Below are positions 1,476 through 64,000 of a DNA stretch of 64,000 bases, one piece after another. The notes under the pieces are model-generated. The model was given only the letters and a program-made list of their open reading frames with translations. It did no database searches and had not been told where the DNA came from. Every line of letters begins with the position of its first letter. Position 1 is the first letter of the stretch. Source of the stretch: Podarcis liolepis. Lineage: Eukaryota. The stretch lies in the NCBI GenBank assembly GCA_965112155.1, contig OZ218104.1. One strand, 5' to 3'. Made by a program: the position numbers and the translations under genes.

Positions 1476-14669
<13,194 letters not shown>

Positions 14670-39900: not shown

Positions 39901-42900
39901 AGCTTGATAGAGAGCACAGATTTGCGTAGGACCTGTCTTGCATACCAGCTCCTGTCTGTTTTGCAGTCATTCCGAGGGCAGGGCCTGAGGCTTACTTGAA
40001 ATGCCACATGCATTATAAGGTGTAACTTGACAGCAGTTCTAAGCTCCTCATCAAATTAAATGTGTCAAAATAGCTAGGCACAGAAGTGCCATTTGCTAGG
40101 CCTTCTATGTATTCCATCTCTGCCGGGAGCTTTGTAGAATGCCAGGCTCCATGGGCCCATCCTTTGCTCAGAGTTGTTTGTATATAGTCTGAGCACCTCC
40201 AGTGCCTTTGGGTGACAACATTTTCCAGTCAGCCTAGAGTCTTGCTTCACCCTCTTGTTGGAGCTGGAGAACACTTTGCCCCATCTCCTCTTCCACACAG
40301 CATAGAGGAACAGCCCACAGATAGAGGCATGCATAGCCTTGTCACTTTTTTGCCTAGTAGAGCACTCAGTCTGCCCTGGGCGCTGCTTCCCCAGAGATCG
40401 AGGCCAAGTATGAGAAGAAGATGCGAGTCCTACGCGACGAGCTAGACTTGCGCAGGAAAACTGAAATCCATGAGATTGAGGAGAGGAAGAATGGACAGAT
40501 CAACACACTGATGAAGAATCACGAGAAGGCTTTCAGCGACATCAAGAACTACTACAACGATGTCACTCTTAATAACCTGGCACTTATCAACACCCTCAAG
40601 GTAAAAGACATGCACCACACGACACCATCCCCAAATCAGCCTGTTGCCAGATTCAGGTAGTGGAAGGTCTAAGTGGATGGTGTTCATTGGGCTTTCTATG
40701 TTTTGTTGTTTTGTTCTGCTTTGGCTGATTTCTGTACTGCCATTGCTTTAGAGCCACTACATGTTGCATTTGTTTGCTTTGCCATTGTGGATACCTTGAG
40801 TCCTGGAGCTCCTCTCTTGTGCATCTCACTATGGACCAACCCCTGTTGTAGTTGAAGGTCATGTGTTTCCCATTTGGGGAAACGAACCATTCTGGTTTGG
40901 GGGGAAAGTCTGTTTCTATATTTTATATGTCAACCGCGTTTGTTTGGAAAATTGTTCCATTCACTTCAGTGGGCCAGTCAAATGAGTCAGGGTGCATCCT
41001 TGGTTATCCTCAGGTGATTCAGAGCTGTTGTTTCTCTTTGCCTTGGTGGTGGTGGGTCCCATGGGAGGTTTGAGGAAGCATGTTCCAGACAGGTGGTCAG
41101 GACTGGTGGGATGGGGCTTGCTGCCTGTTTTTGAGGACCTGAGGCACACACAGCCTCCTTTCTCTGTGTGTGTCTTGGAGTACAGGAGCAGATGGAGGAG
41201 ATGAAGAAGAAGGAGGATCATCTGGAGAAGGAGATGGCTGAAGTGCTGCTGCAGAACAAAAAGCTGGTGGAGCCACTGCAACGAGCCCGTGAAGAGGTGG
41301 CAGAGCTGCAGAAGAAACTGGCGCACTATGAAAAGGACAAGGCCATGTTGCATGTGAGTCCCACGGCTCTGCATTCACCTTTGCTTCCTGAGTGTCCTGG
41401 CCAATGAACTCTGGGTTACTTAGTATGACTGACTCTCTGCTAGTTTGGTGTGAACAGCACTGGGCTATTTCTGCACCAGCCCACTTTCATGCCACAGATT
41501 TTTATTTCCACTTTTGATAGCAGTTTGCATTGTCTCTATTCTCATGTGCCCTTTATTTCCAGAGTTAGGCCCCACCCTTTCTGTGATGTCCTTCAGTGCT
41601 AACAGTGGTCATTTAGAGTCTAGACAAATGTTACTGCGCCTTCCATTCTAGTTGTTGTCCAGCACTTTGCTTTTTATTTTTATCAGTGTTTCAAGATGAG
41701 AGTTTCGTGATTTTACATGCAGCCACGTACTCACGACCAAAGATGTCTTTTTAGGTTTTGTTCCCTTCTGATGCTGCACACTCCACCAAAGTTGTTGGTG
41801 TGTCTGAATGCACAACAGTTTTGCCATAATCAAAAGTAGACTCAACTGCATTCAAAATACAACTGCAGAGCAATTGAGTTACTATGTGAAGAGGAAGGCA
41901 GGGGGCCATGAGGATCATGAAACATGCTGGAAGTTGGGGGCAAGAGACCCCTGAGCTGATATTTCCAGGATGAGAGACTTGAATGATGCCCAGTCCCTGT
42001 GGAGCAGATAGAGGAACATAGTACTTTCCCATTCTTACAGTTTCTCCTTTGCACTGTCTGGTTTGGAGGTCAAAACCCATCAGTCCCTTCTGTGCCCTAG
42101 GAACTCTGTACGGCTGCTTTAACCTCCTTCTCTTCCCTTTCCAGCACACACATGCCCGTTTGAAAGTCACCGAGAAGGAATTAAAGGATCTCCAGTGGGA
42201 ACATGAGGTGCTGCAGCAAAGGTTCATCAGGGTAGGGATCAAGAATCACTGCTGTGCTGTGGCTTAACTTAGAGTTGGGAGAGGGTTGGATTTGATGGAT
42301 GGGCTGTGGGACAAGATGAAAAAGATGGGCCCATTTTCTGTAGATATCCGGTAGAGAGGTCTATATAGCCACCCACCCACCCACCACCCATTGGGCCTTG
42401 AGAATTCTGTGGTCCTGGTTGTTTCTTGATGAGACCTTTAGAGCAGATGGACAAGTCTGAGCCAAAACTGCCTGCAATATACATTCCCTGTCATCTCCAA
42501 ATTAGCTGTGTAATTTTTTGCGGTTCTTTTGGATTGCTTGAGCAGCTGGACTTTGTGTTTGTCTGAACAGCAGCATGTCTACTGCTGGTCTGGTCTGGTC
42601 ATCAGTATGACTTAAAGAAGTGGGGACTATGATACTGGAGAGGGGCAGCTAGAATCATAGAATCATAGAGTTGGAATAGACCACAAGGGCCATCGAGTCC
42701 AATCCCCTGCCAAGCAGGAAACACCATCAGAGCACTCCTGACATATGGTTGTCAAGCCTCTGCTTAAAGACCTCCAAAGAAGGAGACTCCATCACACTCC
42801 TTGGCAGCAAATTCCACTGTCAAACAGCTCTTACTGTCAGGAAGTTCTTCCTAATATTTAGGTGGAATCTTCTTTCCTCAGAGGGGGGGGGATGGAAGGG

Positions 42901-45900
42901 AGGGGCTCTCTTCAGTATAACTCATTAAGACATGGGGACAGGTTTGCGTGCCATTCAGCATTGATCTGAGACCTCATTAGCTGCCTTTGAAAACTGGCTG
43001 CAGTGGTCCTATCTTAATGAGGGGGTCTCTTACTAACAAGAATTGGGTCAGGCTGCCTCCCATCCCTCCTCCCCCCACAGATCCTTGCAAAGTGCATTGG
43101 GAGAGAAAGGAGGCCTTTCTGTCCCCAAAGGCATCATTCTCTTGCTCTCCTGAGGCTGCTTAAAGCCCATGGCCTAGTCTGCCATGCCTTGCTGGGTGGT
43201 CTGTTTCTGTCCCTGAAATGGGGGAAAGAGGTTGCTGCAGATTCCTCAGTTCTGTGGCTCCTGAGGAGGAGGCAAGCAAGCGTGCTAGGGGCTTCTGTGG
43301 AGCTGCCCTCTATGACTGCTGCAAGGCCGGGGGTTGAAAACAGGGGCATGACTCTTCCTGATAAAGGTCAGCATATGGGAGCACAGCAAGGCAGTGGGTG
43401 GGCATTTGCATGACATGCACGCACACGCGCGCGCGCACACACACACACATAGCACAATGCAAGAGGATGGTTTTAACTGATAAAAACCTAATCACCACCA
43501 GCCCTGTCTTCCAGCTCCCACTGCCTTCCCTAATAGCCTGAGGGGCTGCCTCAGAGCTCTGCATTGCTCCTCCCTCTGTGACTCACTAAAGTCCCAACTT
43601 TTGGAATCATTGCAACATATTTTAATCTGTGTTGGTTTGTGACAGAGGGGGTGGGCAACTGTTGTCATTGGGTAGCTGGCTTTTTATTTTTGGAAGAAGA
43701 CTTTTACGCATGAATGTTAGGACTATAGACAGTTGCCTAAATACACAGCCAGACCCTTGGTCCATGCAGCTCCGTCTTGTCTATGCACTGACTGGCAGTG
43801 GCTCTCAAGGCTTCACCTTTCCAAGCCCTCCCTGGAGATGTGCGGGATGCAACTTTGGACATTCTGTATGCCAAGTGTATGGGCCTACGGCCGTAATAAA
43901 TTATTATTATTATTATTATTGTATGCCAAGCATGTGCTCCACCACTGATCTCCAGGCCTTTCCCGTGTGCTCACAGTGGACAAGCAAAACACACCAAAAC
44001 CCAAAGCACCTTATTAACAGACAGAATACCTGGTTTAGGGGCTTCATGGAGCACCCAGTCTGTGCCAAGGCTCAGAGCAGTGCTTTCTTTGACTCTGGGG
44101 TTGATGGTTGTCTGCACAGGTGCAGGACGAGCGAGATGACCTGTACCAGAAATTTACCAAAGCCATTAATGAGGTGCAGCAGAAAACTGGCTTTAAGAAC
44201 TTGTTGCTGGAGCGGAAGCTTCTCGGCCTCTCCAACATCCTGGAGAAGAAGGAGGTGCAGCTCAACGAGGTCCTGGCTGCCACCAACCTTGATCCCGGTG
44301 CTCTCAGTGTGGTCACCCGCAAGCTGGAGGTACTGTGCTTCTAATCACCATGGGGATTATAGAGATAGCTTATAGATATTTTTCTAATACCCTTCAGTTA
44401 AACAAACAGCTCCCAAGCCAGATGAGAACAATTGGTCAGATTCCTTCTTGCTGCTGTTTCAGATGGGGTTTGTCCCTGGGTTTCATATTACCAAGATGGA
44501 TTAGGCAAGATCTAGGTAAAACCTTGCAATGCACAGGAGAAAGGTGCACTGGCTAAAAGGGAGCTGCCAGGGGCTCAAGGTGTGGGCAAGTGCAGGGAGC
44601 CATCCTATAATAAGGGACTCTGCCCAACTGACAAGGGGAAGTTAGTTTTTCTCTGAGCACTCCCCCTCATTCAGGGGCAATTGATAAATGTAGCCTGCGC
44701 TGTAGTTCAGAGTTGTGCCCTTAGTTGTGCACAAGAGGCCCACAAGCATGAAAAGCCTTTGCCTCAGCCCTCCAAACAATCCAGAGCATGTACAGTAGTA
44801 CCTCGGGTTACAAACGCTTTGGGTTACAAACTCCGCTAACCTGGAAGTAGTATCTCAGGTTGAGAACTTTGCCCCAGGATGAGAACAGAAATTGCATGCC
44901 GGTGGCACAGCAGCAGCGGGAGGCCCCATTAGCAAAAGCGCGCCTCAGGTTAAGAATGGTTTTGGGTTAAGAACGGACCTCTGGAACAAATTAAGTTCAT
45001 AACCCAAGGTACCACTGTACCAACATTTCCATTTGCCAAGCAGGTTCTGAATGCACACGCACACAACTGGCCTCCAGTTGCCTCGGGTTGGCTAGAAGTT
45101 GCTAGGAGGTGTTTGTTTCCAGCAGCAGCTATAGAAGTCAGTCACATGGGCAGTACTGTGGGCAAAAGGGACCCTCGCAGCAGTGACTGAACCAGTGGTG
45201 GGGTGAATTGCTCTACTGGGGAATGCTTTCCCTTCCTATCTGACCTGAGCCTCTTTGTTGCTTTCTTGGGACATAGAATGCACAAGCAGTCAGCAAGTGT
45301 CTGTTGTGCTTCTGGCTGTGAGAATACACTTGGCATGAGGGTGCTGTGCCTGGGGAAATGTGCAGGAGCCAGACTGAAAGGGGAAGTTCCAGTGGTCAGA
45401 GACTTCAGTTTCTTTTCCCTCTGGCTGGTGGAGTTGGAAGAGATTCTGCATGCAAATCTGCTGAACCTATGTGCCATTTATTCTGGTCCCAGAATCCGTT
45501 CAGTACACAGAGCACACGTGCCCCTTTGCAGCATGAGAACTGAAGCGGCAATGTGCCCTCGTTGCCAGGGCGGTGTTTCCTGCTCTGCTGCTCAGTCTCC
45601 AACGGAGATGGAAAGGGAGAGAGAGAATGAGCTCCTGGCTGCATTCTCGGTTCCTTGCCTCCCTCCTTCTCTCCCTGCGGCCACTTGGGACTGTCAGAAC
45701 CTTCTAGCCACACAAGCGTGGCTTGGGGATTGCTTGCCACACAGCTTTCTCTCAACTCGTTCCACTCCATGGGGTTTCCCTGTTGCTGATTTCCTAGCTG
45801 CCCGCTTTCTTTGCTAAGGTTGGGTTCAATCTAACAGCGCCTTGTTACACAGCAAGGCTATCTGCACTTTCAAAGCATTCCCCTGGCACGCCAAGTTGTT

Positions 45901-47616
45901 TCTGGGGAGCAGGGGCTGCCCATCATGCTGCCAGGGCCCCTCCCCTCTGTGTTTCCAGCCCCAAGAGTCAAGGGAAGCTCTCCACCATAGGGACCTCTGT
46001 GGCCTCCTCACTCTTCAGGCTTCCTGTCCTGTCCAGTCTCTGAAATGCCTGATGGGATGGAAACAGAGTTATCTACCATGACTTGGCCTGCCTGGGAAGG
46101 GGGTTTAGTTAGCGGCTTCCACATTCCAAGCACGGCTGGCGCCAGTAACTGGAGATTCTTCCCAGAGGCAGCTGCTCCTTCCACCAGGCCTCCCACATTC
46201 CTACCTTCAGCTGCTGCTTGCGCAGGAGGCACATCCACAGGGGATTCCCTGGGTATTGTAGCACCAGTTCCTGTGCCAAATAGGGCAAAAAATGGCTTGG
46301 TGGCAGAAATGCCAGCCCACAGCTCTCATCTCCCATTACCGGCGGGCAACGCAGATGAGCCTTAATTTGAGTCACAAAGAGGAAATTGTGCAAGGAGGCA
46401 AGAGGCGCATTAGCTCCTGTTTGTAGATGGAGTGCTCCACTGTGATTGCTATGCCAAGTGTGGGATGCAGTACTGTATACAAAATTCAGCACCCATGAGA
46501 ATCTCGGGTTTTACCTGATTTTGTAATAGCAGGTTTCTAAACCTCATGGCCGTAGAGAGGCTTGGAAATACATTGGCACTGCCTAATGAAATCACGGAAG
46601 CCAACAACAGACAGATTAGGACTTTCAGCATGCAGAATTTGCAGAAAGGAAAGAGCCAAGCACGAGACTGTGCTGCAGAAGGGCACCTAACTTTGCATAG
46701 GCCTGTCATGGCCCATTAAGAAAGGCCAAAAGCTCTGGCTGGGCCTTGACTAGTCCCCTTGTGGGCCAGTTCACTTGCCTGATGTGTTAACGCCCAAACA
46801 ACCTTCTTTCACAGGATGTGCTGGATTCGAAAAACAATGCCATCAAGGATCTGCAGTACGAGCTAGCCAGAGTGTGCAAGGTAAGAGCTCCAGCTGAGGA
46901 GAACCCTATAATTGTACTTGAATGTCTGTTGGAGCAAAATGTAGAGAGCAGGTCTCTTTAGACACAACCCAGGAAGGAAATATATTTTCCCTAGCAGTTG
47001 GCTTTTACTTATGCCTTGTTTGAAAGCCATTTATGCTAGCAGGAATTCACTATCCTGTGGCAGTGAGTTCCATAGGTTAATGCCAAGAAATGTGAATAAT
47101 TACTTCCCCTGTCTTTTCTAATGCCCACTGCCTATCCATCTCAGTGAACGGCTGATGGGTTTGACAAATGTTGTACTAGCCATCGCTTCATCTGACCTAC
47201 CAAGTTGCATTGTATTCACCTCCAGCCCCATTTTTCTAAATTAACAAGTTTGTTCTAAGCATTTGTTCCTTGAGATGGTCTAGCCTGCAACCATTTTAGT
47301 TGGCCTTTTCCTGCTCTCTTGCATCCTTTTGGAGAAATACGGATGCAGCCACCACTGCCATGGGTGCATTACCAGAGCATAGACAAGAGAAGTTGCCTTA
47401 GGTGGCTGTGTTATGGTATGTGATGTTTGATCCCTCTCCTCAACCTGCAATTGCCTCCCATTGCAGGCCCACAATGACTTGTTGCGGACGTACGAGGCCA
47501 AGCTCACAGCCTTTGGGATCCCTTTGGACAATTTGGGCTTCAAGCCCCTGGAAACCTCCGTGATCGGCCACACGCTGGGCCAGGGTCCTGCTGGGTTTGT
47601 CTCAACCCCCACGTAG
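36709..47616 (+). CDS. GAS8: Growth arrest-specific 8 / dynein regulatory complex subunit 4 (482 aa, 11 exons)
   Basis: Exons 36709-36711 (ATG only), 37258-37356, 38352-38549, 39167-39373, 39579-39633, 40395-40600, 41186-41353, 42145-42231, 44120-44329, 46815-46880, 47467-47616; 1449 nt open; MAPKKKG..., [53 protein letters not shown] match DRC4. Confidence 0.95.
42650..42878 (-). mobile_element. CR1 LINE 3' end fragment
   Basis: tagaatcatagaatcatagagttggaa...ctcttactgtcaggaagttcttcctaat is the antisense CR1 3' terminus with (ATTCTATG)n-type tail. Confidence 0.75.
44791..45019. mobile_element. Tigger/mariner-type MITE
   Basis: TIRs ta-cagtagtacctcgggtta / taacccaaggtaccactg-ta. Confidence 0.8.
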
Positions 47617-48392
47617 CACAGCCTGACATCATACTTTGGAATGCCTTCAGCCTAAGCCTTGTGTGCAAGCAAGCCACTGTCCCGCTCCTGCTGTGGCCGT
47701 AGAGGAGAGGGAGGGAGAGAGCAGCCCCCTGGAATGAGATTGTGTCTGCTCCAGCCCTCATTTGTATTAAAGAGGCCCTGTGGTGGGCTATTCAGTCTTC
47801 AGTCTCTGCAAAGCCTCCCTTTTTCTTTCCCACCCACGTCAAGGCAGAGCTTGGGGACTTGAAAAGCATCTTCCTCTTGATTAATGAGCCCCTGAACTAC
47901 TTAATCCCACCTTATCTAGAGCCTCCAAAGTCCTCCACACCAATGTTGGGTCCACTCAAGCACCTCTGAAGAGCCTGGCTCCTGGATCCAGGCTAAAGGA
48001 CTACCTAGTCCAGCATCCTGTTCCCCACAGTGGCCAAGCAGATGCCTCTGGGAAGCCCACAATCAGGACATGAGTGCAGCAGCCCTCTCCCCACTCATGT
48101 TCCCCAGCAACTGAGGGAGCCCTACCTAATCAGTAGAGCACATGTGTGTTAAGGACCCAGACCCAATTCATGGCATCTCCAATTTAAAACAAGAGGCTTA
48201 CAAGTATCAGTCTTTAGATTAATCTCACATTTACTACCAGGCAGCTGCTCATGGCCAAGCCCCCAGCCTGAGGCTCGGGCCAGAGGTGGCCGTGGATGCA
48301 ACCACAGCTCTCCATCCGCTGGACTGCATCAGCTCTCTCAGAACAGGCACCCCGGTTTGCTGAAGCAGCCCCTCCTGCTGGCCGGTCTCCCA

Positions 48393-49310
48393 CTAGCTTC
48401 CCCTGTAGGTGGTGTAGGAATAGGGGCTGAGCAGCAAGGGGATGTGCACTTTTTCTTCCTCTGTGATGGTGAAGACAATCTAAACAGAGAGACAAGAGGA
48501 TGCATAAAGACAAGGGAGGGGGGAATAGCAGGAGGTTGGTAGTGCTCTTTGGTTTGAGATCCTTTCTTCGCTGCACTGGGCCTAGCCCATGAGAAGACAT
48601 TTGTCAGGGGCCCAAATGCCTGGTCCGGAGCACCCCTAGTGCCCAGTCCTCGCACACTTCTGGCTTTGTGCTCTTTCAGGGATGTCCCATGCACAACATC
48701 TAGCTCTCCTACCAACCACCTGGGCCTCTTCCTGCAGGTTTCTGAGGGACTTCACAGCGTGCAGCCTTCATAATGTGAAGTTTATGCTGATTTCTCCCAT
48801 ATTCCAACGTTGTGCTTCTCCTGCCAGGAAGTACATCCCTCAAAGGGCAGTGAGTGGTGGTCCCTGCCATCATCAGTCCTCCCTATGTTGGAAGGAGCCT
48901 CCCCCCCCTTCCAGGTGTGAGTTTCATCTGGGAACCAAACTTACTTCCACATAAGGGTAGAAGCTGCTGTATCCTTGTTGCTCCCAGTACTCCCTCGTCT
49001 CAAAGCGCAGCTTATAGGTGCCAGGTTTCAGCTCCCTGGGCATCGGGCTGTTTCTGTCCAAGCGCCCATCAGGGTTTGTCTTGCTGGAACGGAATAAATG
49101 AGGCTGAAACTGCAACGGCCCCAGCCCTACCGAGGGAGGGAGATTGTCTCGCTTCATCCCCTCCTACCTCCTCATGAGCTCTGCCCACGGACGTTGGGGG
49201 TCCTCCAGCTTAGAGAAGTGCATGGCCAGGCCTTGGGCAGGGAGGCCGGTGAGCACGTTCAGTGCGTGGACAGTCAGGAAAGCGTGGTGGACCTCATCGG
49301 AACTAGCCAC
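48393..49310 (-). CDS. URAH: 5-hydroxyisourate hydrolase (transthyretin-related) coding exons
   Basis: [47 protein letters not shown] / [39 protein letters not shown] / [28 protein letters not shown]; the HIUase C-terminal YRGS signature is present; position next to GAS8 matches the mammalian URAH/URAHP locus. Confidence 0.93.
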
Positions 49311-52300
49311 CTGGGATTCAGAACGGAGAGCCGGGTGGAGCAAAAGCCTCTGTATGAGTTCCTCCCCCTCCCAGTTTCCTAGGTCCATCGATTCCCAAAG
49401 GAAGATGTCCTTGCCACCTTCAGCAGCAGGCCCTTATTTTCCAAGCTCTTTCTTGCTGCCCTCAGCAGTTTTTCCTGTTTTTAAATGTTTGCTTTTTCTC
49501 CCAGGTGCTGTGTGCACGGGAGCTTTCTGTGAAGTGTTGTGGTTGTGGAGAGAGAGGGAGGACCCCACCCCACCCACTTCTCACCCATCCACCAGCTGTG
49601 TGTTCAAATACAAACTCTGCTGGCTCCTGGGTGAGAGGTTTTGTTGGGGGGGGGGTTAAAGACAAGATGCCCTCGGCAGACCCTGCTTGCTTGCTTGCTG
49701 CTGTCCACATTGCCCATTCATTTGCCCAAATTGTAGCCCTGCAGCTTGACATAGTGCCTGCCACTGTTTGTACAGAGAGGGCAGGTGAGCAAGTAATGAA
49801 GGTGCAGAGGAGGTTCAGGGGCAGTGAAGGTCAGCAGTGGTCCCCACTGGCTGTGTCAGGATGGGCCTGGGCAGGTGCCTTACAACGCCAGCCTCTTGAG
49901 AGAAGCCCTGCCTGACAAGTGCGTTCCTCTGCTCTTAAGCACGGCAGAGCAGTACTCCTGGGTTTCAAACAGAGGTCCTTCCTAGCCCTATCTGGAGATG
50001 TTGGGGATGAACCTAAGAACACTGAGTTATGACCCCTCTCCACCCAGAAGGTGGGACTGAACAGTGGCAGCTCTCCTTCCTGCTCCATGTATTATTTCAC
50101 TGCCTTCTTAAACATTTGATCCCTGGCCACAGAGTTCCTTTACTTTTGGCCCATGCCAGGAAACTCCCCAAGACAATCAAGAGTGTGGCATTCAAGCTTC
50201 TTGTTTTTCTTGAGCTGCCAGAAATATAGATTCCCACCCCCTTGCCAAGTTTCCCAATGAAACACCAAAGCAGGAAGGCTTTCCCTTCTCTTGGGCTGAG
50301 CCCACCCACCATCCTAGGATCTCTCACCACCTGGGGTCTCCCTCCTCCGTCCCTCTGTGGTAGTTGGTTTCTCTCATCCATTCTGGGGCATTTCTGATGC
50401 AGCCCCTTCTAACTCCACTTCCTTCTTGCCTTCCACTGGCAGGCTGCCTGCCTGTCATGACTCAGCAGAAAGTCTTAACCCTTTTGGTGCCACGAGGGCA
50501 GGCTCAACCGGGTGCCCCCTGAAAACATGAGAAAGGGGCCCAATTCATTTCAGGGCAAGGGGGGAGGGTTCCATCTCCATCTCTACTCAGCCTAATCTGT
50601 AAAATATGCATTTGAAGTTCTTGGGACTTCTCACTGGAGTAAAATGCAGCAAGCATTTTGTGGGAGAATAGTCAATACTGTCATGCCTCAGCAAGAGCAA
50701 AAATGAAGATATAGGAGCAGTCACATGGTTACCCGGGAGTATTTGTGAGTTCCCAGTCCTTACTTGGATCACTGCTGTTGCTGTAGTGCTAAGACCTTCT
50801 CCTAAGCAGTCTGTAGCCTGCAGGATCAGAGTGTATTGGGGGGTTACCTGTAAACAAATAATTCCATTAGCATTTGGGCAAAGGGGATCAAAGCACCACA
50901 TGGCAAAGCAGTGTTGTATAAGATCCTGAGAGCCCCACTGGCCAAGTAACTTGAGGAAACTTTAAACTCACTAGGGTACTTCCAGATACAGCAAACTGAA
51001 ATGGGACACAGCTGTTATTCTAGACCAGGCACAGGCAAACTCGGCCCTCCAGATGTTTTGGGACTACAGTTCCCATCATCCCTGACCACTGGTCCTGCTA
51101 GCTAGGGATCATGGGAGTTGTAGACCAAAAACATCTGGAGGGCCAAGTTTGCCTATGCCTGTGGTAGACCACCCTTAATATTAGGAAAATGTGAAAAGAA
51201 AATGCTTAATTCTTGCAAACCATACCATTAAAGCACATGACTTCCCCCAAAGGATTTGGGCAAATGTAGTTTGCCCCTCACAGAGCTACAATTCCCAGCA
51301 CCCTTGACAAACTGCAGTTCCTAGGATTCTTTGGAGGAAGCCATGTGCTTTAAATGTGTACAGCTTATGTCCACTTCATCTTCTGTAGGGCAGCCCTCCA
51401 GATATTGGAAGGCGGCAGTCATGCTGTTCATCTGCTCCAGACTCAAAGCCTTCCCTCTTCTCTTTCAGAAATCCCTTGCAAGCCCCTCCCCATCCTGCTT
51501 GGTCCCCCCCCCCCCAGCTAGCCTCTAATCCACCAGTGCCTTATGGCCCAGTGTTTCCACTAGGAGTAAAGCACAGCAGCAGAGCCAAGGGTTGCCTCAA
51601 AGGGGAAATTTAGCATCATTAATCATGCCCTCTCCCTACACAGCCAAGACCCAGCCACTTACCGTTCTGTCAAGTCCTGGTTTGTTCAAGCTGATGACCC
51701 CTGTTTTATTATCGATGGCAAACATTTGGCTCTGTGGCTTTGTGGGGGTCTGGATAGCGAGGGAGTAGGTGATTACCCCATTGTAGGAATTCACAGCATC
51801 ATCCATGTCAGTGGCTGATACTTGTGTCACAAAGGTACCTGGGTGCGTGTGCCACAAAAGTCCAAAGTTCAGCTTCTGAAGTGCATCACACACATACCCG
51901 CAACATAGCCAGATCATCCCAGCTTGGAGGTCAAATTGACTCTGCCCCAGACAGCTCCAAAATTACCTCTTAGCCTCTGCAAACTGTGCAGCAGCTGGGT
52001 GCGATCTGCACTGCCTTTATGCCAGTCCGCAAGTTATGGTGGGCTCAGTAGTGACTGCCCAGGCCATACAGGTAGAAAGAAGCACAGTTAGGGGCCTGGG
52101 GTTTGCACACAATATTATACCCCCTCCCCCTGTGGGTTCTCCTTCCATAAAGAATGGGCAAAGGATATGGGCATTCAGAGGCAAATATTAGGGGTTTCCA
52201 TACAGTCAGTTCGTTCATGCATGTGCAACCAGACAGACAGACACGTACCTGGTGGGGCTCCTTCTGCTACGGAACCATGGAAGATGCTCTGGGTAAAACG

Positions 52301-54553
52301 GGGCTTGTTGTCATTCTGATCAAGCACCTTGATGACGATCTCTGTGCGGTTCCCCACAGGCTGCCCAGTTGCACTTACAGCGTGAAGAAAGAGCTGCAGA
52401 GCAAGCAGGGTAGCAATTGAGACACTCCCCAAAGCTGCCTCTCACCCTCCCAGACACCTTCCCACAAGAGTGTAGAGCTGCCCTTCTCTTCACACCGAGA
52501 GCACCCAGGAATTTACATTAGGGGCTAAAAAGTATTTAGATACTGTATGCTGAGAATTCAAAAATGAAACTAAGCTGAACTTTCTCCTCCTTCCCATAAA
52601 TAATGGTTGCTAATACTATTGCTTCCCGGGGATTCCCCAAAAGCTGACATAAAGCAGCAGCAAACATGTGATTTCCACTCTTTCCCTGCCCCATAACACG
52701 TAGCAGCCTTCCTCAACCTGGTGCTCTCCAGCAGTTTTGAACTGCGAGTCCCATCAGCTCCAGCCAGCACAGCTATATGATGCTTGGGCTGATGGCAGCA
52801 GTAGTCCAAAGGATCTGGAAGGCACCAGGTTGGCAAAGGCAGTTTTAAGAGGTGCTGGGAGGTTCCAGGGTGGCAGAAGCTAGCACAAAGGGACTTACAA
52901 TGTATTTGTCTTTGGTCTCTCTGTCCAATGGCATGGTCACCATCAGCCAGCCTGTCTCTCTTTCAAGGATGAAGATGCCTTGAGGAGGTCTGTCTGCACC
53001 AGTCCCAGTGACACTGTAGAAAGTCATGCCATCTTTACCTACCTGGTAGCAAATGAACGTGTCAAAACTGAGAAGGTCTGTTTTCTTGTTGCCTCCCTCT
53101 ATGCCTCCCTCAGAGGTAGAACACAGAGAGGGATTCTGAGCAGGTTCATAGGAGGAAAAGAAGTCCTCCAAGCATAGTGGTTCTGAGCTGTTCAAGGCAC
53201 ATGAAGAGAAAGAGGCAGTTGCCCTCTCTGTCTATACCTGCAGCAGACGCTTGGGGTAGGGACCGATGCCATTCTCCATGACCAATATTGGAGGCAGAAG
53301 TTGCAAATCCCTTTTCTGCCTCTTCAGATCAAGTCTGGATTCTGGAAAGGTCAGCACTTCTGCCCAAGCAAATAGGAATGAGACCTGCAAGGGGGAAAGA
53401 GAGTTGCATTATTTTTTTAAAAAAACCCTCATTCAGAGCCCAATCCCATGGCATCTTCTATGTGAAGACAAGTTTGGCACTCCTTAAGATTTGTAGGGAT
53501 CTCAGGACAGGACAGTGCTGGACCTCAGAATTCCATCCTGGAACATGTGAAGGAAGACACGTCCTGGAATCTGGACACACCTCTATGTCAAGAGTATCTT
53601 CCTTCTATCTTAAATGTCAGTATTGGGTTTGCATGCTTGTTATTTACCTGAAGTCCTTTCACTTCATCTATGGACCTGCCACAGGTAGCAACCAGTCTGT
53701 TTTGCAGCCTCTATTGAGCAGTAGTCAAGGGTAGAGCTGATAAAGGGGAGATGGGCCAAGAGGCCTTGCCACGGCTCCCACACCCATGGCCAACATCTTG
53801 TTGACCCCTTGGGCTAGCCTTATTTGTGTTATCTGATCCCTCTCCAAGGCTAGATGCTTTGCAGCCCATGGAAGATTCAAGGTCCCTGTTTACAGTTTAA
53901 AGGTTGGTGCTCCCTAGTGGTTGTTTTTAAAGGAAATGCATGTTTGCTGATTCAACATTAGTTTGGAACATTGGCAACTGCTCTTATCTTCTCGAAACCT
54001 ATTTGCTTTGAACAACTATGCTGCCAGTAGAGTACAGTGTAGAGAGACACAAGCCCAATATTATGAAACCTTCCTCAGCCCAGTAACATTCCCATGCTCA
54101 CTCGGTGGTCACATCTCCCCCACACTCTGTTCATGCTCCTCTTCATCTTTATCCTCACACCCCAGCTCTTCCACAAGGCCATGGCAACACAGCTGGGGGA
54201 CAGCACCTGTACTTTGCATGCAGGAATTCCCAGATTCAAACCCAGCCGCTGCCATCCTGAAGGATTTCTGGTTTCAGCAGCACAGCAAAATCACTGCCTG
54301 GAGCCTTGGGGAATTGCTACTAATAAACACTAGTTGGACGAAGAGCCTGGCCTGGTGTGATAAAGTTGGTTCATGTGTTGGTACCTCTTCTGCACCTACA
54401 AAACACTTAACCCAGCCCCTCCACCATTAATGCCAAGAAGATCCTTCTACAACACCAAAGATACTTGCCCCTCTTCGCTTGCTCTTTGGAGGACAATCCT
54501 ACCTGAGAGTGAAGAACCAGGAAGAGCAGGAGGCTGACCCTAAAGAAGCACAT
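48393..54553 (-). CDS. Predicted chimeric secreted protein: cadherin signal peptide + mini-propeptide + EC1-EC2 fused to 5-hydroxyisourate hydrolase (371 aa, 9 exons)
   Basis: Exons (minus) 54553-54503, 53384-53238, 53042-52899, 52393-52249, 51838-51663, 50847-50764, 49310-49168, 49083-48945, 48479-48393; all GT-AG, phases 0,0,0,1,0,0,2,0; 1116 nt with no internal stop. The junction 50764->49310 (caa|gtaagg ... cccag|gtggct) is inferred, not observed in RNA. Confidence 0.72.
50764..54553 (-). CDS. Truncated type I (CDH1-like) cadherin module: signal peptide, short propeptide, EC1, EC2
   Basis: [17 protein letters not shown] | [49 protein letters not shown] | [36 protein letters not shown].. 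| [22 protein letters not shown].. | [18 protein letters not shown] | [28 protein letters not shown]; the 145-nt and 176-nt exons match CDH1 exons 6 and 7; HAV motif present; no EC3-5, TM or cytoplasmic exons seen downstream. Confidence 0.88.
51026..51161. mobile_element. hAT-type palindromic MITE
   Basis: TIRs caggcacaggcaaact / agtttgcctatgcctg, internal inverted repeat, imperfect 8-bp TSD ttctagac/tggtagac. Confidence 0.75.
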
Positions 54554-56432
54554 TGTCCTGCTTCAGCTCTTGCTCCTTGCCTTCTGCAAAACTCTGGCAA
54601 AGGGATGGCAACCCAGGTAACTTAAGCTAGAGCAAAGTCTGCCTGGCAAGTCCCTTTGGGGGAAGGGTTAAGGGCAAATTGGCAAGCCTGGGGTATTTTG
54701 ACACACCACATGGAAGCAGGCCACAGTTGATTCAGCATGTGGGACCAAGTGAAGGGCGTGTGCTTGTGCCCTAGGAACATCTCTTGCAGGTGGCACTGCC
54801 CTCCATTGTGCAAGTCTCATTTATTCTGGCAGGGTAAGGGTTCATTTGGGAGCAGGTATTCTCAGGACTCAAGCCTCTGAAGCTCTTTCGAATATCAGAG
54901 CTCAGTTTTATGGCCTTTTGCCCTTTGTTTTGATTCAGAGCAGAAATTTGCAATAAAACATGGAGCGGAGGAGGGTGTTGTTATGAAAACAGAGGAAGCC
55001 ATTTTCCTTGTGCAGAAACAGAGGAGGGGCTGCCCAGTCCCCCTTTCACAGTAGCAGGAGAGTGCCATGCCTAGTCCTGACCTCATGGCAGACATAGCTT
55101 CCTCAGAAGGCAAACCAGGTGCCCCACAGGTTGAGGGCCTTGAGGAGCAGGCAGAGGCTCCTGGAACAAGTGATGAGGAGGGCCCCTGGTGAGATACCTG
55201 CTGAAGAACCCTTGGAGCCGTCAGAAGAGGTGAAAGTGCCCCCTGCCCCGCCCCGGTCCTCAAGAGCACCGGTGCCAAAAGCTTTTGGTCCAGATTGAAG
55301 AGCAACGATACAGCTTGCCTTTATAGAACCAGAGCCCCCAGTCTACCTGTGAATGTGAAAGCCTTGATGCTCCTTCACTGCCAGCATTTGTGGTTAGAGA
55401 GTGGTTTAGGAGGCCAGAGTATATAAGACCCCTCTCCTGCCCTTTGAGCCTTTCAGTCGCCAGAAATAACACAGATCTCTGGCTCCTTGTTCCTGGCTTT
55501 GGCGCCCCCACCCCCCTGAACTCTCTGTGTGATCGACTGTGGACCATTTCCTGACTTTGCTTCTACATCACATGTTGGACCTAGACAGATTCTGTCTGCT
55601 GGACCTATGGAACTCTGCCCTCTTGGCTAAGTGTCTTGGTAAAGGCTTTTTACCCTCCTGTGACCGAGACCCTAGCCCTGGAGGAAGGTGCTCTCCTGGA
55701 ACATGAGAAAGTGCTGCAAGAGTAAGTAGAAGGAGGCAGACACTCACACATGAGCACCACTGTATTATATCGAAAGACCAACCAGGATCTGGTCCCCATT
55801 TGTCTTGACGTTGTCTTTAAATCCCCATAGCAGAGATTTCTCCATGAAGTTGTTAACAGCAAGCTGATGTGCAGATAGCAGCAGCAGAGGTTTTCCACAT
55901 TGGTGCACAAAGAACGGCTGCCCACCATTCAACCTCTGAACGAGGTTTGTTGCTTTATATTATAAACTGGTTTCAAGCTAACATGGTTGGCAGAAGCATT
56001 GCACTTGGCCACCACAAGAGGGCACTGTGAGTATACAGAAAGGTTTCAGCCTCTACTTATTCACCCACTTCGACCACCAGAGTGGTATTTAAGTAAAAGA
56101 CCCCAGACTGAGTGATCTGGTGGAAGCACTTCTCCAGGCCAATGCAAAACAGGTAAGGTATTATTATTATTCCTGTCATCTTAATTTTAAATAGTAATGG
56201 AATAAAGAAGAAGAATTGAAAGAAAGGCAGGGTGTAAGTGTAATAAAGATTAAATTGTTGTTATTATTTATTGATCCTACAATTTTCTCCACATTTTTAT
56301 GAAGATTTTGGAAGGAGCAGTCCTTTCTCTTATGCTTATAAATTAAGAGGCATGAAAGGAAAGAGGAAGTAGAAGAACAAGCAAAATTCCAAATCATTTA
56401 CTTCGGTTTTGCTGGCCAAGTGGCCATAGGAT

Positions 56433-56760
56433 TTGTCAGAAGCCCCCCAAGGCCAGTGGAACTTGAGATACGCCACTGACGAAATATGCCAAGCAATGTC
56501 TGCCAATGAAGACGTGACATTAGCAAAAAATAAGCTGGTACTTACACTCAAGATCCAACATCACTCAGGAATTCAAATGGGGCATAAAGCGACACCAGGA
56601 CCAGACGGCTTTGGTAGCGCTTTTGATAAAGCTTTTCAGGAGACTTTAATGCCTTCTTTAATTTTGCTGTTAAATGACGTTTTGAGGAGTGGTATCCTTC
56701 CAAAGTGCTTGGTCCACATCAGAAATAATTGTTATACCAAAACCAGGAAGAGATGCTGTG
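56433..56760 (+). mobile_element. Degenerate L1/Tx1-clade LINE ORF2 fragment (start of the RT domain)
   Basis: Translation KATPGPDGF..AFDKAFQETLMPSLILLLNDVLRSGILP resembles the KAPGPDGF motif at the start of non-LTR reverse transcriptases. Confidence 0.7.
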
Positions 56761-57479
56761 CCTGTCATCACCTTTCATTAGGCCTCTGTCCGCACAAACG
56801 ACATGAATTAAAACCCTATTCACATTCATAGGAGAGCAAATTGAGGTTGCCTCTTGTTTCCCCCATTCTCCCCCCTTTCCCTGTAACCAGTAGCAATTGC
56901 ACTACATCTAAGCCCACGTATGAAGGGTTACTGGGGATTTATTAAGCGTCTGTGCTGGTTATATGGTATGCATGCAATCTAATTAATGGAAAGCTTTATC
57001 AATGCTTAAATTAGAATTAGATAAATTTGAGGGGGGGAATAGGGAGTCTTGGAGCTAATCCTAAGAAGTTACTAATAATGTGTTACGATATGTGGGAACA
57101 AATTATGGTAAGCTTAAGCAACAGAAACCCATTCCACACTGTAGGACAAATTTCAGATATATGAGGTAAAAAATAATCCCATATACTGTAAATTGAATAA
57201 ATTATGTTCCATAAATTATACTTTTCAAAAAATGTGGGTACATCCTTTTATTAGACTTCTTTGTTCCTGGAGGTTTCTTCACGCTGACCAGAGAGGAAAT
57301 CCAGACGGGGCATCAAATTTGGAAAAAGAGGAGGAAGGAGGAGAGACAGAGAGGAAGGAAGGGAAGGAGAGGGAAGGATAACTCTGTTCAGTTGAACATC
57401 TTCTCCTGTGACTCCTTTGTTGAGTCACAGATGAGGCAGGTTGAATAGGGGATGATTCCACACTATTCCCAGGAACATT

Positions 57480-58400
57480 TAATTATTTTTTTTGTAATTT
57501 CCAGTTATATACATTTCAATAGTTTTACAGGCATTTTAACATTTTAACATTTCAAAACTCGACTTCCTCTTTCTATGGTTCCTTAAATTTCTATTTATTA
57601 TTTCCTGCATATTCTGATTCTTTTATTCATCTGCTTGAATTATTTACTCTTATGAAGCTGCAGGTCATTACAATAATCCTGCCAATGTCCTTATTTGTAT
57701 GCAATTTATTTGTACATATTCAGTAAACCATTTCCATTCTTTTATAAAAAGTTTGTTGTCTTGATTTCTTATTTTTACAGTAAGTTTTGCCATTTCTGCA
57801 TAGCCCATGAGTTTTTGTATCCAGTCGTCTTTCGTTGGGACGTCTTCTTTCCATTTTTGGGCTAATAACATTCTTGCCGCTGTAATCGCATACATAAATA
57901 AATTTCTATACTGTTTAGGTAGTTCGACCCCTATAATTCCCAGAAGGAAAGCTTCTGTTTTTATTTTATTTTTACAAATGTTATTTTAAACATCTTTTTC
58001 AATTCATTATATATCATTTCCCAGCAAGCTTTAACCAGGACCACCACATATGATAGAAAGTACCTTCTTTCTCTTTGCATTTCCAACACTTATTTGATTT
58101 TGATTTATACATTTTTGCCAGTTTACTCAGTGTTAGATACTTGCTATATAACATTTTCATATAGTTTTCTCTGAAACCATAGCATGCTGTAAATTTTATA
58201 TGTGTGTTCCACAATTGTTCCCATGCTTCCATATCTATATTATAACCAATATCTATTGCCCAATGTATCATTGAAGATTTTACTTGCTCCTCCTTTGTTT
58301 CCCAGTCCAATAATAACTTATACATTTCAGACAGCACTTTAACATTACATTCCAACAGATCTCTCTCCATTTGTGATATCTGTTCCCCAAACCCTTGTTT
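57480..58400 (-). mobile_element. L1-clade LINE ORF2 C-terminal fragment and 3' UTR
   Basis: KCWKCKEKEGTFYHMWW (CCHC-type knuckle) and ITAARMLLAQKWK; AT-rich, frameshifted. Confidence 0.8.
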
Positions 58401-59527
58401 CTTATCTTTCTACTATTCCTAGGAACATTAAACAAGAAAAGACAAAGTATGTCAAAGAGTTTTTCTCTCAGTCTGCTCTTCCTCAGAAGGTCTGCTGGGC
58501 CTTGGAGTCTCCTGCGATAACCTAGTATCTCTATGTATGGGTGGGGGGTGTTGGTTTTTGTTTTATGGATCAAATTCCAATGGCAAAGCATATTAATTGT
58601 ATTTCCCCTCCTTACAACAACAACAACAACAGTATTTAATTAATTAATTCGATTTCTTGACCGTCCTTTACCACAAGGCTCCAGGTTGCCTTGCAACAAC
58701 AAAACATACAATTACAAAACAAACAGAACAGTTCCCTACATAAAACAATGCACATTTAAAAAACAACAACACAATTCCATGTTTAAAAATAGTTCCAGTA
58801 GAGATGTAGACTGGGATAAACACCCCCACTTAAAAGGTTTATACTACCTTAACCTCCCTAGAGAAATAGGTGAGATATAAATTCAATAAGTTTTTGGTGT
58901 TTTGGTGTTTTTTTTTAAATTACCCCCCCCCCGTACTGTCCTTTGGAGCCCAATTGCTCTCCAAGATGGGAAGCAGATGGCTTGGCTGCGCAAAGACTTG
59001 CCACAGACCTCACTCCTTCAGAACATATCACGGAGGCTGAAAATGCACTTGTGATAAAAGAAGGAGATGGGGGCAGTGAGTGACCCCACTCGCTATTCAC
59101 CATGCATGATACCAGGAGGGGCGAAGAGGGTTTGGCTTTGCACAAATGAAATTGCAGTTGCAGGTCTGCCTGATCCATTTACCTGTTAATGCCATTATGT
59201 GGAAGCAGTTCGTTCCCTTATTTAGCCCTCAGCGACTTAGGCTCCAGTATCTGAAACACAGCCACCTTATATTTGCACCCTCTTGGACATTAAGATTGGC
59301 AGGGGGGGCCCTCTTGGTAGTTCCACCACCCACCCAGTTCTCTATGGCAGCCCCAAAGCTGTGAAAATCCCTCCCCACCTGGCACCACCTTTATGCAGCT
59401 TTCCTCCTGTACTGAAGATGCAGCTCACTGGCCAAGCTACCGGTTGAGGATACAAGTTTTAGGACCCACCTTAGCTCTTGAGCGCAGTTGCTTTAACTTA
59501 TTTTAAGTTGTTCTAACCCTCCTGGAA

Positions 59528-59853
59528 AGGGACACGGGTGGCGCTGTGGGTTAAACCACAGAGCCTAGGACTTGCCGATCAGAAGGTTGGCGGTTTGAAT
59601 CCCCGCGATGGGGTGAGCTCCCATTGCTCGGTCCCTGCTCCTGCCAACCTAGCAGTTCAAACGCATGTCTAGTGCAAGTAGATAAATAGGTACCACTCTG
59701 GCGGGAAGGTAAACGGCGTTTCTGTGCGCTGCTGGCCACATGACCCGGAAGCTGTACGCCGGCTCCCTCGGCCAGTAAAGCAAGATGAGTGCTGCAATCC
59801 CAGAGTCGGCCACGACTGGACCTAATGGTTAGGGGTCCCTTTACCTTTACCTT
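59528..59853 (+). mobile_element. Full-length Sauria SINE
   Basis: gggacacgggtggcgctgtgggttaaaccac head, gaatccc B-box-like motif, (ACCTTT)n tail, 14-bp TSD taaccctcctggaa (59514-59527, 59854-59867). Confidence 0.9.
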
Positions 59854-62800: not shown

Positions 62801-63329
62801 CTTTTCTGACTGTTGTGAAGCTGTCCACAGGTACCTTCAAACAGGAATGAGAACTCAGGGTCTTAGCTTAAATCTTTATGGAAGCTCAAACCCCAGCGCC
62901 TCTCTGCTGCAGACGCTTTCCAGCGTCTTCTGGAATATTTCGCTGTCTCCCAAATTGCCACAAAGTCCTTCCAGGATCTTCTACCACTCGGGCAATGATG
63001 GTCCCTGCACTGGGGGCTCCTTCACTGGTGCTCTACATCCAGGCCCTTGCAAATCTTAGCTCCCACAACCTTGGAGAGCTCGTGCCTTGGGGTCCGGGGC
63101 TCCTAGCGGGAGAAGCCTTGAGGAAGGGATGGCCAGGATCGAGCCCCAAGGAGAGTTGCAACAACGTGGGGGGACGGACGGAACGAGACTCAAAGGCGTG
63201 GGACTCAAAAGTGGGAGCGAGAAACCAAAGATAGATTTGGACAATCCCTTTTTGAGGATATCACTGTAAAAGTTTTATTTCCTTCTTTGGGTACTTTTTA
63301 TTTTGACAAATGCAGCCTCCAGCTGAACC

Positions 63330-63817
63330 CTCGTTAAAAATGCCGAGAGCTAAAATCGCGTTTAGCGCTGTAGGGAGGTGAAAGCAATTTGGAAGCGGGT
63401 GCTGAATCAAGAGGGAGGCTCCCCCTGCCAGAAAAGCGCCCCCCGCGTAACCGAAACACAGCCGTCGACACCAAGTTTCAGGTGTGTGTGGGGGGGGAGA
63501 GGTCCGCCCCCTCCCCTTGCAGCGATGGAGCCGGTCTCGCCCCCTGCCCGCCTTTGCAAGACCCGGGCGAGCGGGGAGGGGCCGGGGCGGTGGCAGCGGG
63601 AGCCCCGCCCGCGGAGCCTCACCTGGCGCGGCGGCTTTAAAGGCGCCGGGCAGGCCGGGCGGAGCCCCGCAGTGGTAGAAGCAGGCGAAGCAGGCGGGCG
63701 ACGCGAGGGGGCCTCCTTCAGCCCAGGCAGCTCCAGGCGACGCAACGCGGGACGCGCCCGGAGCTCCGACGAGGTTTCCCTTTGCCGACGGCGGCGCTTT
63801 CGCTTCTCGTCGCGGCG
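63330..63817 (+). promoter_or_regulatory. CpG island promoter/5' UTR of the CDH3-like gene
   Basis: CpG-rich; GC boxes, E-box CACCTG at 63620-63625, TATA-like tttaaa at about 63636-63641. Confidence 0.65.
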
Positions 63818-63868
63818 ATGGGGCTCCCGCGGAGCTGCCTGCGGGCCCTCTTGTTTCTCCTCCTCGAG
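63818..63868 (+). CDS. CDH3: Exon 1 (signal peptide) of a type I cadherin, probably P/B-cadherin; the gene continues beyond the window
   Basis: MGLPRSCLRALLFLLLE followed by a consensus donor gag|gtgagt (phase 0) within a CpG island; resembles human CDH3 exon 1 MGLPRGPLASLLLLQ. Confidence 0.65.
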
Positions 63869-64000
63869 GTGAGTACCTAACTAAGCGGGTCCCGAAGGAC
63901 GGTGTCGGTAAACAGCAGATCCCGGGGAAGGAGAGCGGAGGGGCGCATCAGTGCCCTGGGCGAGATGTTGTTCCTCGAGGGGAGGGGGGCACAGGGGCAC

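Follow-up and report, generated by a model that had tools for sequence, protein, structure and literature searches.

Does the 5-hydroxyisourate (HIU) hydrolase gene (HIUase, gene URAH) of the lizard Podarcis liolepis encode an enzyme that leaves the cell, and if so, how old is that arrangement? The initial annotation of a 64,000-nucleotide stretch of contig OZ218104.1, called hereafter the window, had proposed that the HIUase was rerouted from peroxisome to secretion by capture of a cadherin 5' end. In the minus-strand frame of the URAH locus, nine exons add up to 371 stop-free codons that specify a predicted signal peptide, a furin-type site, cadherin repeats EC1–EC2 and a HIUase domain. The exons and their neighbours are the following.

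54503..54553, minus strand: exon 1, 17 codons with a phase-0 donor, predicted to encode the signal peptide; N-terminus identical or near-identical in Podarcis and Lacerta models
53238..53384, minus strand: exon 2, end of the signal/pro region, furin-type RQKR, mature start D43 and start of EC1; Trp2 absent in Podarcis
52899..53042, minus strand: exon 3, cadherin EC1 with LDRE calcium motif (Pfam Cadherin, E=5.1e-07)
52249..52393, minus strand: exon 4, last part of EC1 with HAV, then the DxNDN linker and the first part of EC2
51663..51838, minus strand: exon 5, cadherin EC2 with DxD calcium motif (Pfam Cadherin, E=4.6e-08)
50764..50847, minus strand: exon 6, last EC2 strands, with a phase-0 donor at the domain boundary, which is the fusion junction (splice sites, secondary structure of the model)
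50328..50381, minus strand: internal alternative first exon, 18 codons, with a longer donor at 50310; matches Lacerta agilis isoforms X1/X2
49168..49310, minus strand: exon 7, HIUase part 1, with His264, equivalent to His12 (Pfam, alignment to 2H1X)
48945..49083, minus strand: exon 8, HIUase part 2, with the Asp50 and Arg52 equivalents (Pfam E=3.6e-10, alignment to 2H1X)
48393..48479, minus strand: exon 9, HIUase part 3, with the His103, Pro105 and Leu107 equivalents, YRGS and the stop (Pfam E=4.7e-10, alignment to 2H1X)
63818..63868, plus strand: first exon of the adjacent cadherin, CDH1/CDH3-type, oriented head to head with the fusion gene
40361..47616, plus strand: exons of GAS8, which meets the fusion gene tail to tail and is a synteny marker of URAH (Pfam GAS at 40361-40657 and 42022-42264; a putative last-exon ORF ends at 47616)

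The name CDH1/CDH3-type for the exon at 63818-63868 is a putative assignment from the N-terminal sequence.

All eight introns of the frame are of the GT-AG type and phase-compatible. The ten splice donors examined fit 6-8 of the nine consensus positions, against a background of 51 GT sites out of 298 in the locus that score at least 6. The three HIUase exons (49310-49168, 49083-48945 and 48479-48393, minus strand) have AG/GT borders and phases 0/2/0. In the product, a short pro-piece ends with RQKR, and an 11-residue linker joins EC2 to the HIUase. A search with the exon 7 peptide retrieved a 371-aa protein of Podarcis lilfordi with Cadherin and Transthyretin domains, identical to the window product at 369 of 371 positions, which is labelled 'cadherin-1-like' by NCBI and 'hydroxyisourate hydrolase' by UniRef. 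The 371-aa models of P. muralis and P. raffonei are identical to the window product at 361-367 of 371 positions. Since all eight introns are GT-AG, the 371 codons are free of stops and NCBI models of the same 371 aa exist in three Podarcis species, the fusion frame is not due to chance.

The order of genes in the window is DBNDD1-GAS8-URAH-cadherin: an AFG3L1-like gene, DBNDD1 and GAS8 flank the fusion gene on one side, and the cadherin exon 1 on the other. In human, the corresponding order is GAS8-URAHP. DBNDD1, URAH and CDH1 are recorded as neighbours in chicken (PMC7667380). In a tree of HIUase sequences, the window gene falls inside the sauropsid URAH clade. By synteny and tree, the fusion gene is the URAH locus, orthologous to vertebrate URAH. 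Searches of the 64-kb window gave no second HIUase copy and no prodomain exons (tblastn, self-blastn), nor any EC3 or transmembrane exons (tblastn). First exons of the fusion gene and of the neighbouring cadherin are both 51 bases long and end in phase 0; this CDH1/CDH3-type cadherin is the likely parent family of the captured exons.

The HIUase domain itself is complete. The Podarcis protein P0001, which differs from the window product at residues 26 and 242 only, matches the Pfam Transthyretin/HIUase profile from position 1 to 109 of 109 (E=4.9e-34), and the single exons account for profile positions 1-31, 37-82 and 83-109. His264 (49268-49266), Arg304 (49064-49062) and His355 (48446-48444) align with His12, Arg52 and His103 of the zebrafish HIUase 2H1X, and YRGS (48407-48396) with its Tyr116-Ser119. 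All ten active-site residues listed in PMC13751858 (His12, Asp50, Arg52, His103, Pro105, Leu107, Tyr116-Ser119) are found in P0001, so that the catalytic His, Arg, second His and YRGS reported by the initial annotation are confirmed.

Its broader statement, that the enzyme site is preserved, is true of Podarcis and of most birds and squamates, and fails in turtles. The catalytic core is intact in 29 of 30 squamate and 21 of 22 bird sequences, and in none of seven turtle sequences (eight were examined; record P0417, which has no HIUase domain, is left out of the count). The full set of ten residues is kept in only 16 of the 30 squamate sequences, mainly because of Ser119Asn, and the Pogona HIUase carries Arg52Cys. 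Among the 33 fusions that were aligned, His12, Arg52, His103 and Tyr116 are invariant. Judged by the intact cores of birds and squamates, catalysis is probably still under selection in these two groups.

Upstream of the enzyme, EC1-EC2 of Podarcis has the PEN-type, LDRE, DxNDN and DxD calcium motifs and HAV. Calcium motifs of the EC1-EC2 junction are retained nearly throughout the 33 aligned fusions (LDRE in 33, DxD in 33, DxNDN in 32, PEN-type in 30), and the EC2 motif that would serve the absent EC3 is lost in 15 of the 18 birds of this alignment, a pattern that fits long selection on a two-domain module. Of the 33 fusions, 27 have the furin-type site, which in Podarcis is RQKR with its last residue at position 42. 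Trp2, the strand-swap anchor, is also present in 27 of 33, three of the misses being models without that exon; it is absent in Podarcis. The N-terminus is hydrophobic and of cadherin type: the highest 19-residue hydropathy window of the 371-aa product begins at residue 6. Past residue 30, no 19-residue Kyte-Doolittle window exceeds 1.14, and no segment reaches transmembrane level. The Podarcis fusion thus has two cadherin repeats and is devoid of the five-repeat ectodomain, the transmembrane helix and the cytoplasmic tail. An AlphaFold model computed from the 33-sequence alignment (mean pLDDT 74.9, pTM 0.40) has three beta-rich domains, and its best structural matches are crystals of E-cadherin EC1-2 (E=7e-27); in sequence, the cadherin part from Podarcis is about 55-58% identical to E-cadherin EC1-2 of solved structure. 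The proposal of a captured cadherin 5' end is therefore supported, as the HIUase lies in frame behind such an end, with its predicted signal peptide.

In full-length squamate, turtle and bird forms, only 30-57 residues separate the initial Met from the furin site, and there is no prodomain. Three freshwater turtles and four birds share one exact position of the junction at the end of EC2, from which lacertids and snakes deviate by no more than two residues; in geckos, Elgaria and Hemicordylus the fusion runs to the natural end of the same cadherin exon. As a possible mark of secretion, sequons for N-glycosylation were counted: they were found in the linker of 13 of 28 birds, 3 of 7 turtles, the single coelacanth and 2 of 29 squamates, and in none of 20 amphibians, mammals and teleosts, although sequons within the domain occur in 4 of 9 mammals and 4 of 5 teleosts. 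A tree of the cadherin part, which took in proteins of the fusion locus only, places turtles with birds (95/94), apart from squamates; Podarcis (0.65, indicating fast divergence), the coelacanth and a frog record have long branches in it.

Where would the product go? A six-frame scan of positions 47600-64000 for the peroxisomal signal PTS2 (R[LIV]x5[HQ][LA]) gave five matches, none of them usable: the sole strict match is antisense, and of two minus-strand matches one has a stop and the other has no Met in the 25 preceding residues. The initial annotation had found no PTS2 exon, and the PTS2-bearing first exon that it named as counter-evidence was not found in this interval either. PTS2-like nonamers occur in the N-termini of 7 of 11 non-sauropsid entries, versus 0 of 47 sauropsid ones. 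In the account of Mori et al. 2023 (PMC10517255), the uricase of reptiles has lost PTS1 and is gone from the liver, where Urah is still highly expressed; the supplementary table of the same work has Urad absent for 11 of 11 sauropsids and contains no Urah entry for Alligator. Loss of PTS2 from sauropsid URAH parallels the loss of PTS1 from uricase.

The gene has a second possible start, missed in the initial annotation. An ATG-led exon (50381-50328) inside intron 6 splices in frame to exon 7 and would yield a HIUase of 140 or 146 aa with neither signal peptide nor PTS2, a product that would be cytosolic. Models of gecko, skink, agamid, viper and monitor have kin of this exon, and several species show an Arg at position 4-5. 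In local alignments with squamate N-termini, six of eight scored above shuffles at p<0.05. A decayed PTS2 exon was considered as its origin and found no support: scores against a profile of eight PTS2 nonamers did not exceed those of shuffles (window p=0.41; sum over eight species p=0.22).

Shorter forms are found elsewhere as well. The signal exon is joined directly to the HIUase in models of Lacerta, Anolis sagrei, Pogona and Candoia, and the Lacerta, Anolis and Pogona models retrieved have lost most or all cadherin exons. Among the entries listed for chicken, all URAH proteins are 124-163 aa long, including a 127-aa NP_ record, and for this reason the liver expression may come mostly from the leaderless form. 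The move from peroxisome to secretion is consequently upheld in part: PTS2 is gone and a signal peptide is predicted, but the internal leaderless exon of squamates and the short chicken entries indicate that some of the product would be cytosolic, so that the rerouting is partial.

These short forms raise the question of whether the fusion exists at all. All records of it are predicted gene models, and the functional product could be the leaderless cytosolic HIUase, with the fusion a minor product of read-through from a decaying cadherin duplicate next to it, which gene predictors or leaky splicing have joined on. Short isoforms annotated in many species, and as the sole kind in chicken, agree with this, as do the conservation of the internal exon among squamates and the fast divergence of the lacertid cadherin part. 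So do some odd models: those of Zootoca (64% identical to Podarcis in the cadherin part, 98% in the HIUase) and Anas (728 aa) seem to be joined to other cadherins, and one Bombina model begins with unrelated sequence. Against this explanation, a six-exon, prodomain-less cadherin frame is open in squamates, turtles and birds alike, its junction coincides with the EC2 boundary, Neoaves have selectively lost the calcium motif of EC2-EC3, and turtles group with birds in the cadherin-part tree as vertical descent predicts. Moreover, the window offers no transmembrane or EC3 exons with which the cadherin exons could end otherwise. We regard read-through as improbable. The loss of the prodomain, the position of the junction, the pattern of calcium motifs and the cadherin-part tree all argue against a prediction artefact, and the fusion is probably real, in spite of the chicken annotation, the odd Zootoca, Anas and Bombina models and the fast-diverging cadherin part of Podarcis.

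The distribution of the fusion was then used to estimate its age. A search with the HIUase part among proteins of 204-650 aa gave 68 matches, 48 of which combine the Cadherin and Transthyretin domains. Squamates account for 23 of these entries (18 species) and birds for 24 (23 species), and there is one further record. An exhaustive search that started from a rhea HIUase, and in which 10 of 150 matches were looked up by name, added the turtles Chrysemys, Mauremys, Lepidochelys, Eretmochelys and Pelusios, and also cadherin-HIUase models of two amphibians, Bombina (a toad) and Gastrophryne (a frog), and of the coelacanth Latimeria. None of the matches named in this way (10 of 150 representatives) came from crocodilians, tuatara, lungfish, sharks or lamprey. 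The Pfam domains are Cadherin_pro, Cadherin and Transthyretin in Latimeria (XP_006009667.1), Cadherin and Transthyretin in Bombina, and Cadherin_pro and Transthyretin in Gastrophryne. A 361-aa EC1-EC2-HIUase record groups with frogs (support 100/97). The mammalian and teleost entries examined were unfused. An ESM Atlas cluster of 73 chordate members, 100% with Cadherin and 99% with Transthyretin, was the first match for the lizard and coelacanth proteins alike. Lengths of the Urah entries in the table of Mori et al. (PMC10517255) are 365 aa for pigeon, 728 for duck, 332 for python, 258 and 624 for gecko, and 457 and 497 for coelacanth.

The HIUase tree broadly tracks the species tree, with fused and PTS2 forms intermixed inside frogs; it puts turtles with squamates, a grouping that short alignments can produce. 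A topology with separate clades for fused and PTS2 paralogues was rejected by an AU test (p=0.00013) on 19 chosen sequences, in which the 12 fused ones were held together against the 7 with PTS2. This points away from an old pair of paralogues and towards one gene lineage with alternative 5' ends, or towards joins made repeatedly where cadherin and URAH have long been neighbours.

The initial annotation had suggested an independent recruitment tied to uricotely, and this finds no support. Fusion models exist in the coelacanth, Bombina and Gastrophryne, which are not uricotelic (Latimeria and Xenopus are recorded as ammonia/urea excreters by Mori et al., PMC10517255), so the cadherin-URAH join likely predates uricotely. 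Could these models be unrelated read-through artefacts, and the capture an adaptation to uricotely made by the sauropsid ancestor, or by lizards only? Junctions in the frog and coelacanth models do lie at differing cadherin exons, and together with the odd start of a Bombina model this indicates that some of them may be artefacts; the prodomain-less form and the absence of PTS2 are also sauropsid-specific in our sample. On the other side, the coelacanth has two isoforms that differ little in length (457 and 497 aa), of which the entry is one, and its cadherin part, 58% identical to turtle and 48% to Podarcis, with a branch of 0.87, is unlike canonical E-cadherin. This strong divergence suggests a dedicated copy rather than a read-through of canonical E-cadherin. 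The 361-aa record that sits with frogs weighs in the same direction, and a lizard-only origin is ruled out by the bird and turtle fusions. A capture linked to uricotely is thus unlikely. In the sample, the sauropsid-specific changes, as read from the sequences, are the losses of PTS2 and of the cadherin prodomain. On the older-join account, the join would date from lobe-finned fishes or earlier and would have existed side by side with the PTS2 form, which mammals would have retained; the sauropsid ancestor would have dropped PTS2 and prodomain when peroxisomal urate breakdown ended, keeping secreted and cytosolic forms.

What could a secreted HIUase do? Our working model, which we hold to be moderately likely, is that of a URAH gene with an in-frame, truncated copy of an E/P-type cadherin and likely two promoters, whose long form is a predicted secreted HIUase tetramer with four EC1-EC2 arms that clears extracellular 5-hydroxyisourate. 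The predicted signal peptide would route the long form, and the shorter splice form from signal peptide to HIUase, into the secretory pathway, where a furin-like protease would cut off the short pro-piece. HIUase domains would then assemble as a tetramer of about 146 kDa of polypeptide (4 x 36.6 kDa, calculated for the 329-aa chain that begins at D43), as expected because the active sites of this family lie in the central channel of the tetramer, and calcium would stiffen the EC1-EC2 arms. In species with Trp2, the arms may engage one another or E/P-cadherin and hold the enzyme on the surface of epithelia; in Podarcis, where Trp2 is lost, they would probably be a carrier only, probably with no strand-swap. 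From the internal promoter, a cytosolic HIUase would be made.

The likeliest substrate would be HIU that arises in body fluids when abundant urate is oxidised, whether by peroxidases, by oxidants or by the slow uricase of skin; a non-hepatic source is proposed because no hepatic uricase or OHCU decarboxylase remains. Loss of URAH is tied to liver disease in mice (PMC7667380), which fits HIU being harmful.

Catalysis may, on the other hand, be incidental, the HIUase serving to tetramerise the arms into a soluble four-armed ligand or decoy of E/P-cadherin that modulates epithelial adhesion or binds cadherin-targeting microbes. Turtles are in line with such a role, since they retain EC1-EC2, furin site and Trp2 without a single intact catalytic core; the frequency of Trp2 among fusions and the sauropsid lack of Urad and liver uricase are compatible with it too. 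It is difficult to reconcile with the intact cores of nearly all bird and squamate sequences, with the missing Trp2 of Podarcis, and with the Lacerta, Anolis, Pogona and Candoia forms, which skip the cadherin domains and retain signal peptide and enzyme. We consider it rather unlikely.

A third role, carriage of thyroid hormone or another small ligand by the secreted domain, would make of it a second transthyretin. The signal-peptide-plus-HIUase isoforms have the architecture of transthyretin, the gene is expressed in liver, and the turtle active site has decayed. However, Tyr116, which blocks the channel, is kept in 33 of 33 fusions, and position 16 holds Val, Leu or Thr and in no case Ala. 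In Podarcis these positions are Tyr368 (116) and Val268 (16), with YRGS present and the open-channel Thr116/Ala16 absent. Opening of the thyroxine site by Y116T plus I16A is described in PMC13751858. With Tyr116 invariant and residue 16 never Ala, thyroxine binding is unlikely, and we give a carrier function very little credence. The parallel to transthyretin drawn in the initial annotation is therefore good for location only, and not for hormone binding.

Comparison with known systems helps to place the gene. Like vertebrate URAH (EC 3.5.2.17; 2H1X), it has a full PF00576 domain, ten active-site residues, YRGS, GAS8 synteny and a place in the sauropsid URAH clade; it differs by the absence of PTS2, by its signal peptide, furin site and two cadherin domains (or its leaderless exon), by Leu in place of Cys53, and by partner enzymes that are absent from liver. 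With type I classical cadherins (CDH1, P/B-cadherin CDH3, Xenopus EP/C-cadherin), it shares signal peptide, furin-type site, EC1-EC2, HAV and calcium motifs, but it has no folded prodomain, EC3-5, transmembrane helix, catenin-binding tail or Trp2, and it ends in an enzyme. The Urad-Urah allantoin synthases of plants, diatoms and bacteria, as described in PMC13751858, similarly have a tetrameric HIUase core that tolerates an N-terminal fusion, and enterobacterial periplasmic HIUases are a case of export of the active enzyme, that of Salmonella being of importance in the urate-rich hen gut (PMC4324301). What sets Podarcis apart from these two is its vertebrate host and a partner that is an adhesion module and not the next enzyme. 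CRUOX, the cysteine-rich uricase of reptiles (Mori et al. 2023), belongs to the same pathway, and there too a peroxisomal signal was lost in sauropsids and the gene retained; CRUOX changed through a promoter shift and a gain of cysteines and moved to skin, whereas URAH is still expressed in liver and has a different exon architecture.

Transthyretin is likewise a HIUase fold behind a signal peptide, encoded by a liver-expressed gene. In contrast to it, the Podarcis fusion retains the catalytic residues and Tyr116, has cadherin domains in its long form, and is the URAH orthologue, not a duplicate. By sequence and orthology, the window gene is a member of the HIUase family, neither a transthyretin nor a classical cadherin. 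In mouse, Dsg2 presumably lies between Dsg3 and Ttr. Mouse Ttr is on the forward strand, about 124 kb after Dsg3, which is also forward, with Cdh2 about 4 Mb off (PMC3781070); Ttr is thus, like the Podarcis gene, downstream of a cadherin-family gene on the same strand. A more far-reaching scheme, to which we assign a low probability, would have an undescribed vertebrate cadherin-HIUase gene at least as old as lobe-finned fishes: an ancestral HIUase downstream of a cadherin would have gained the cadherin signal exon and, after an early vertebrate duplication, one copy would have become transthyretin and the other the cadherin-URAH fusion. The TRANSTHYRETIN lead, that a shared ancestral cadherin-HIUase neighbourhood was the source of the signal exon of transthyretin, is similarly speculative and more probably wrong. 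If this origin of transthyretin were true, lacertids, anoles, agamids and boas would again be trimming the fusion to signal peptide plus HIUase.

Full-text searches of the literature gave no account of a fusion between cadherin and HIUase, or of its peptides, and an earlier mention may exist (e.g. in Keebaugh and Thomas 2010 or subscription papers). The word 'cadherin' has no occurrence in the preprint, the journal text (PMC10517255) and the supplement of Mori et al. 2023, figures aside, nor in the 2026 review PMC13751858 or in PMC10120013. The architecture is in databases already as automatic models, and otherwise appears to be undescribed. An adhesion module joined to a metabolic enzyme is unusual. 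The database name 'cadherin-1-like' hides it, and can confound counts of E-cadherin expression in birds and reptiles.

A secreted fusion would help to explain why birds and reptiles keep a seemingly unneeded URAH, and it offers testable reasons for that retention, namely an extracellular HIU scavenger or a four-armed soluble cadherin. Reciprocal decay, of catalysis in turtles and of the cadherin part in lacertids and iguanians, is a natural experiment on the function of each half. If the signal exon of transthyretin is also derived from a cadherin, the locus would explain one step in a textbook case of evolution from enzyme to carrier.

Four genes flank the fusion gene, in which cadherin domains EC1-EC2 are joined to HIUase, in the window:

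5262-13942, plus strand: exons of an m-AAA protease, with AAA, lid and Peptidase_M41 domain matches
24527-24709, minus strand: dysbindin-domain exon of DBNDD1
40361-47616, plus strand: GAS8 exons
63818-63868, plus strand: exon 1 of a presumed CDH1/CDH3-type cadherin whose promoter is GC-rich; it faces the fusion gene head to head

DBNDD1 and GAS8 serve solely as synteny markers. By its position, the protease is AFG3L1; its matched exons are open in the window, and human AFG3L1 is a pseudogene. The cadherin, whose type we take from its N-terminal sequence, has a first exon equal in length and phase to the signal exon of the fusion gene. Between the promoters of these two genes lies an AT-rich segment (56001-58400; GC content of 0.37 over 56001-58000), which reads like a retroelement remnant.

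Two further possible 5' variants of the fusion gene were located:

about 53710-53648, minus strand: candidate cassette exon of 21 codons, which the 392-aa X1 model of Podarcis muralis inserts after exon 1 and before exon 2
49388-49311, minus strand: unspliced extension of 26 codons 5' of exon 7, with the in-frame ATG at which a UniRef Podarcis entry (148 aa) begins

No PTS2, the peroxisomal signal, was found in the 26-codon extension, and the 148-aa form is probably a prediction.

Among relatives, seven turtle proteins (P0262, P0402, P0403, P0266, P0418, P0267, P0269) mostly retain the fusion. None of the seven has arginine at the active-site position Arg117, and six also carry a substitution at Arg52 or His12, so that, judging from these residues, turtle HIUase has likely lost catalysis. 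For ground squirrels, Arg52His was found in P0224 and a C-terminus other than YRGS in P0113; constraint on the sciurid enzyme is possibly relaxed.

Fusion models occur in pairs in two Gekko species (P0009/P0024, P0017/P0022) and in Bombina (P0271/P0424), which suggests local duplication of the chimeric gene. Zootoca P0002 (605 aa) is 98% identical to Podarcis in HIUase, but only 64% in the cadherin part, and has a prodomain; either this HIUase is fused to a different cadherin paralogue, or the model was put together wrongly. Numida and Prinia share 88% identity in HIUase and only 68% in the cadherin part. The cadherin parts of galliform birds and duck (P0035, P0034, P0261) form a separate clade, retaining the EC2 LDRE motif, and may have undergone gene conversion from the adjoining CDH1.
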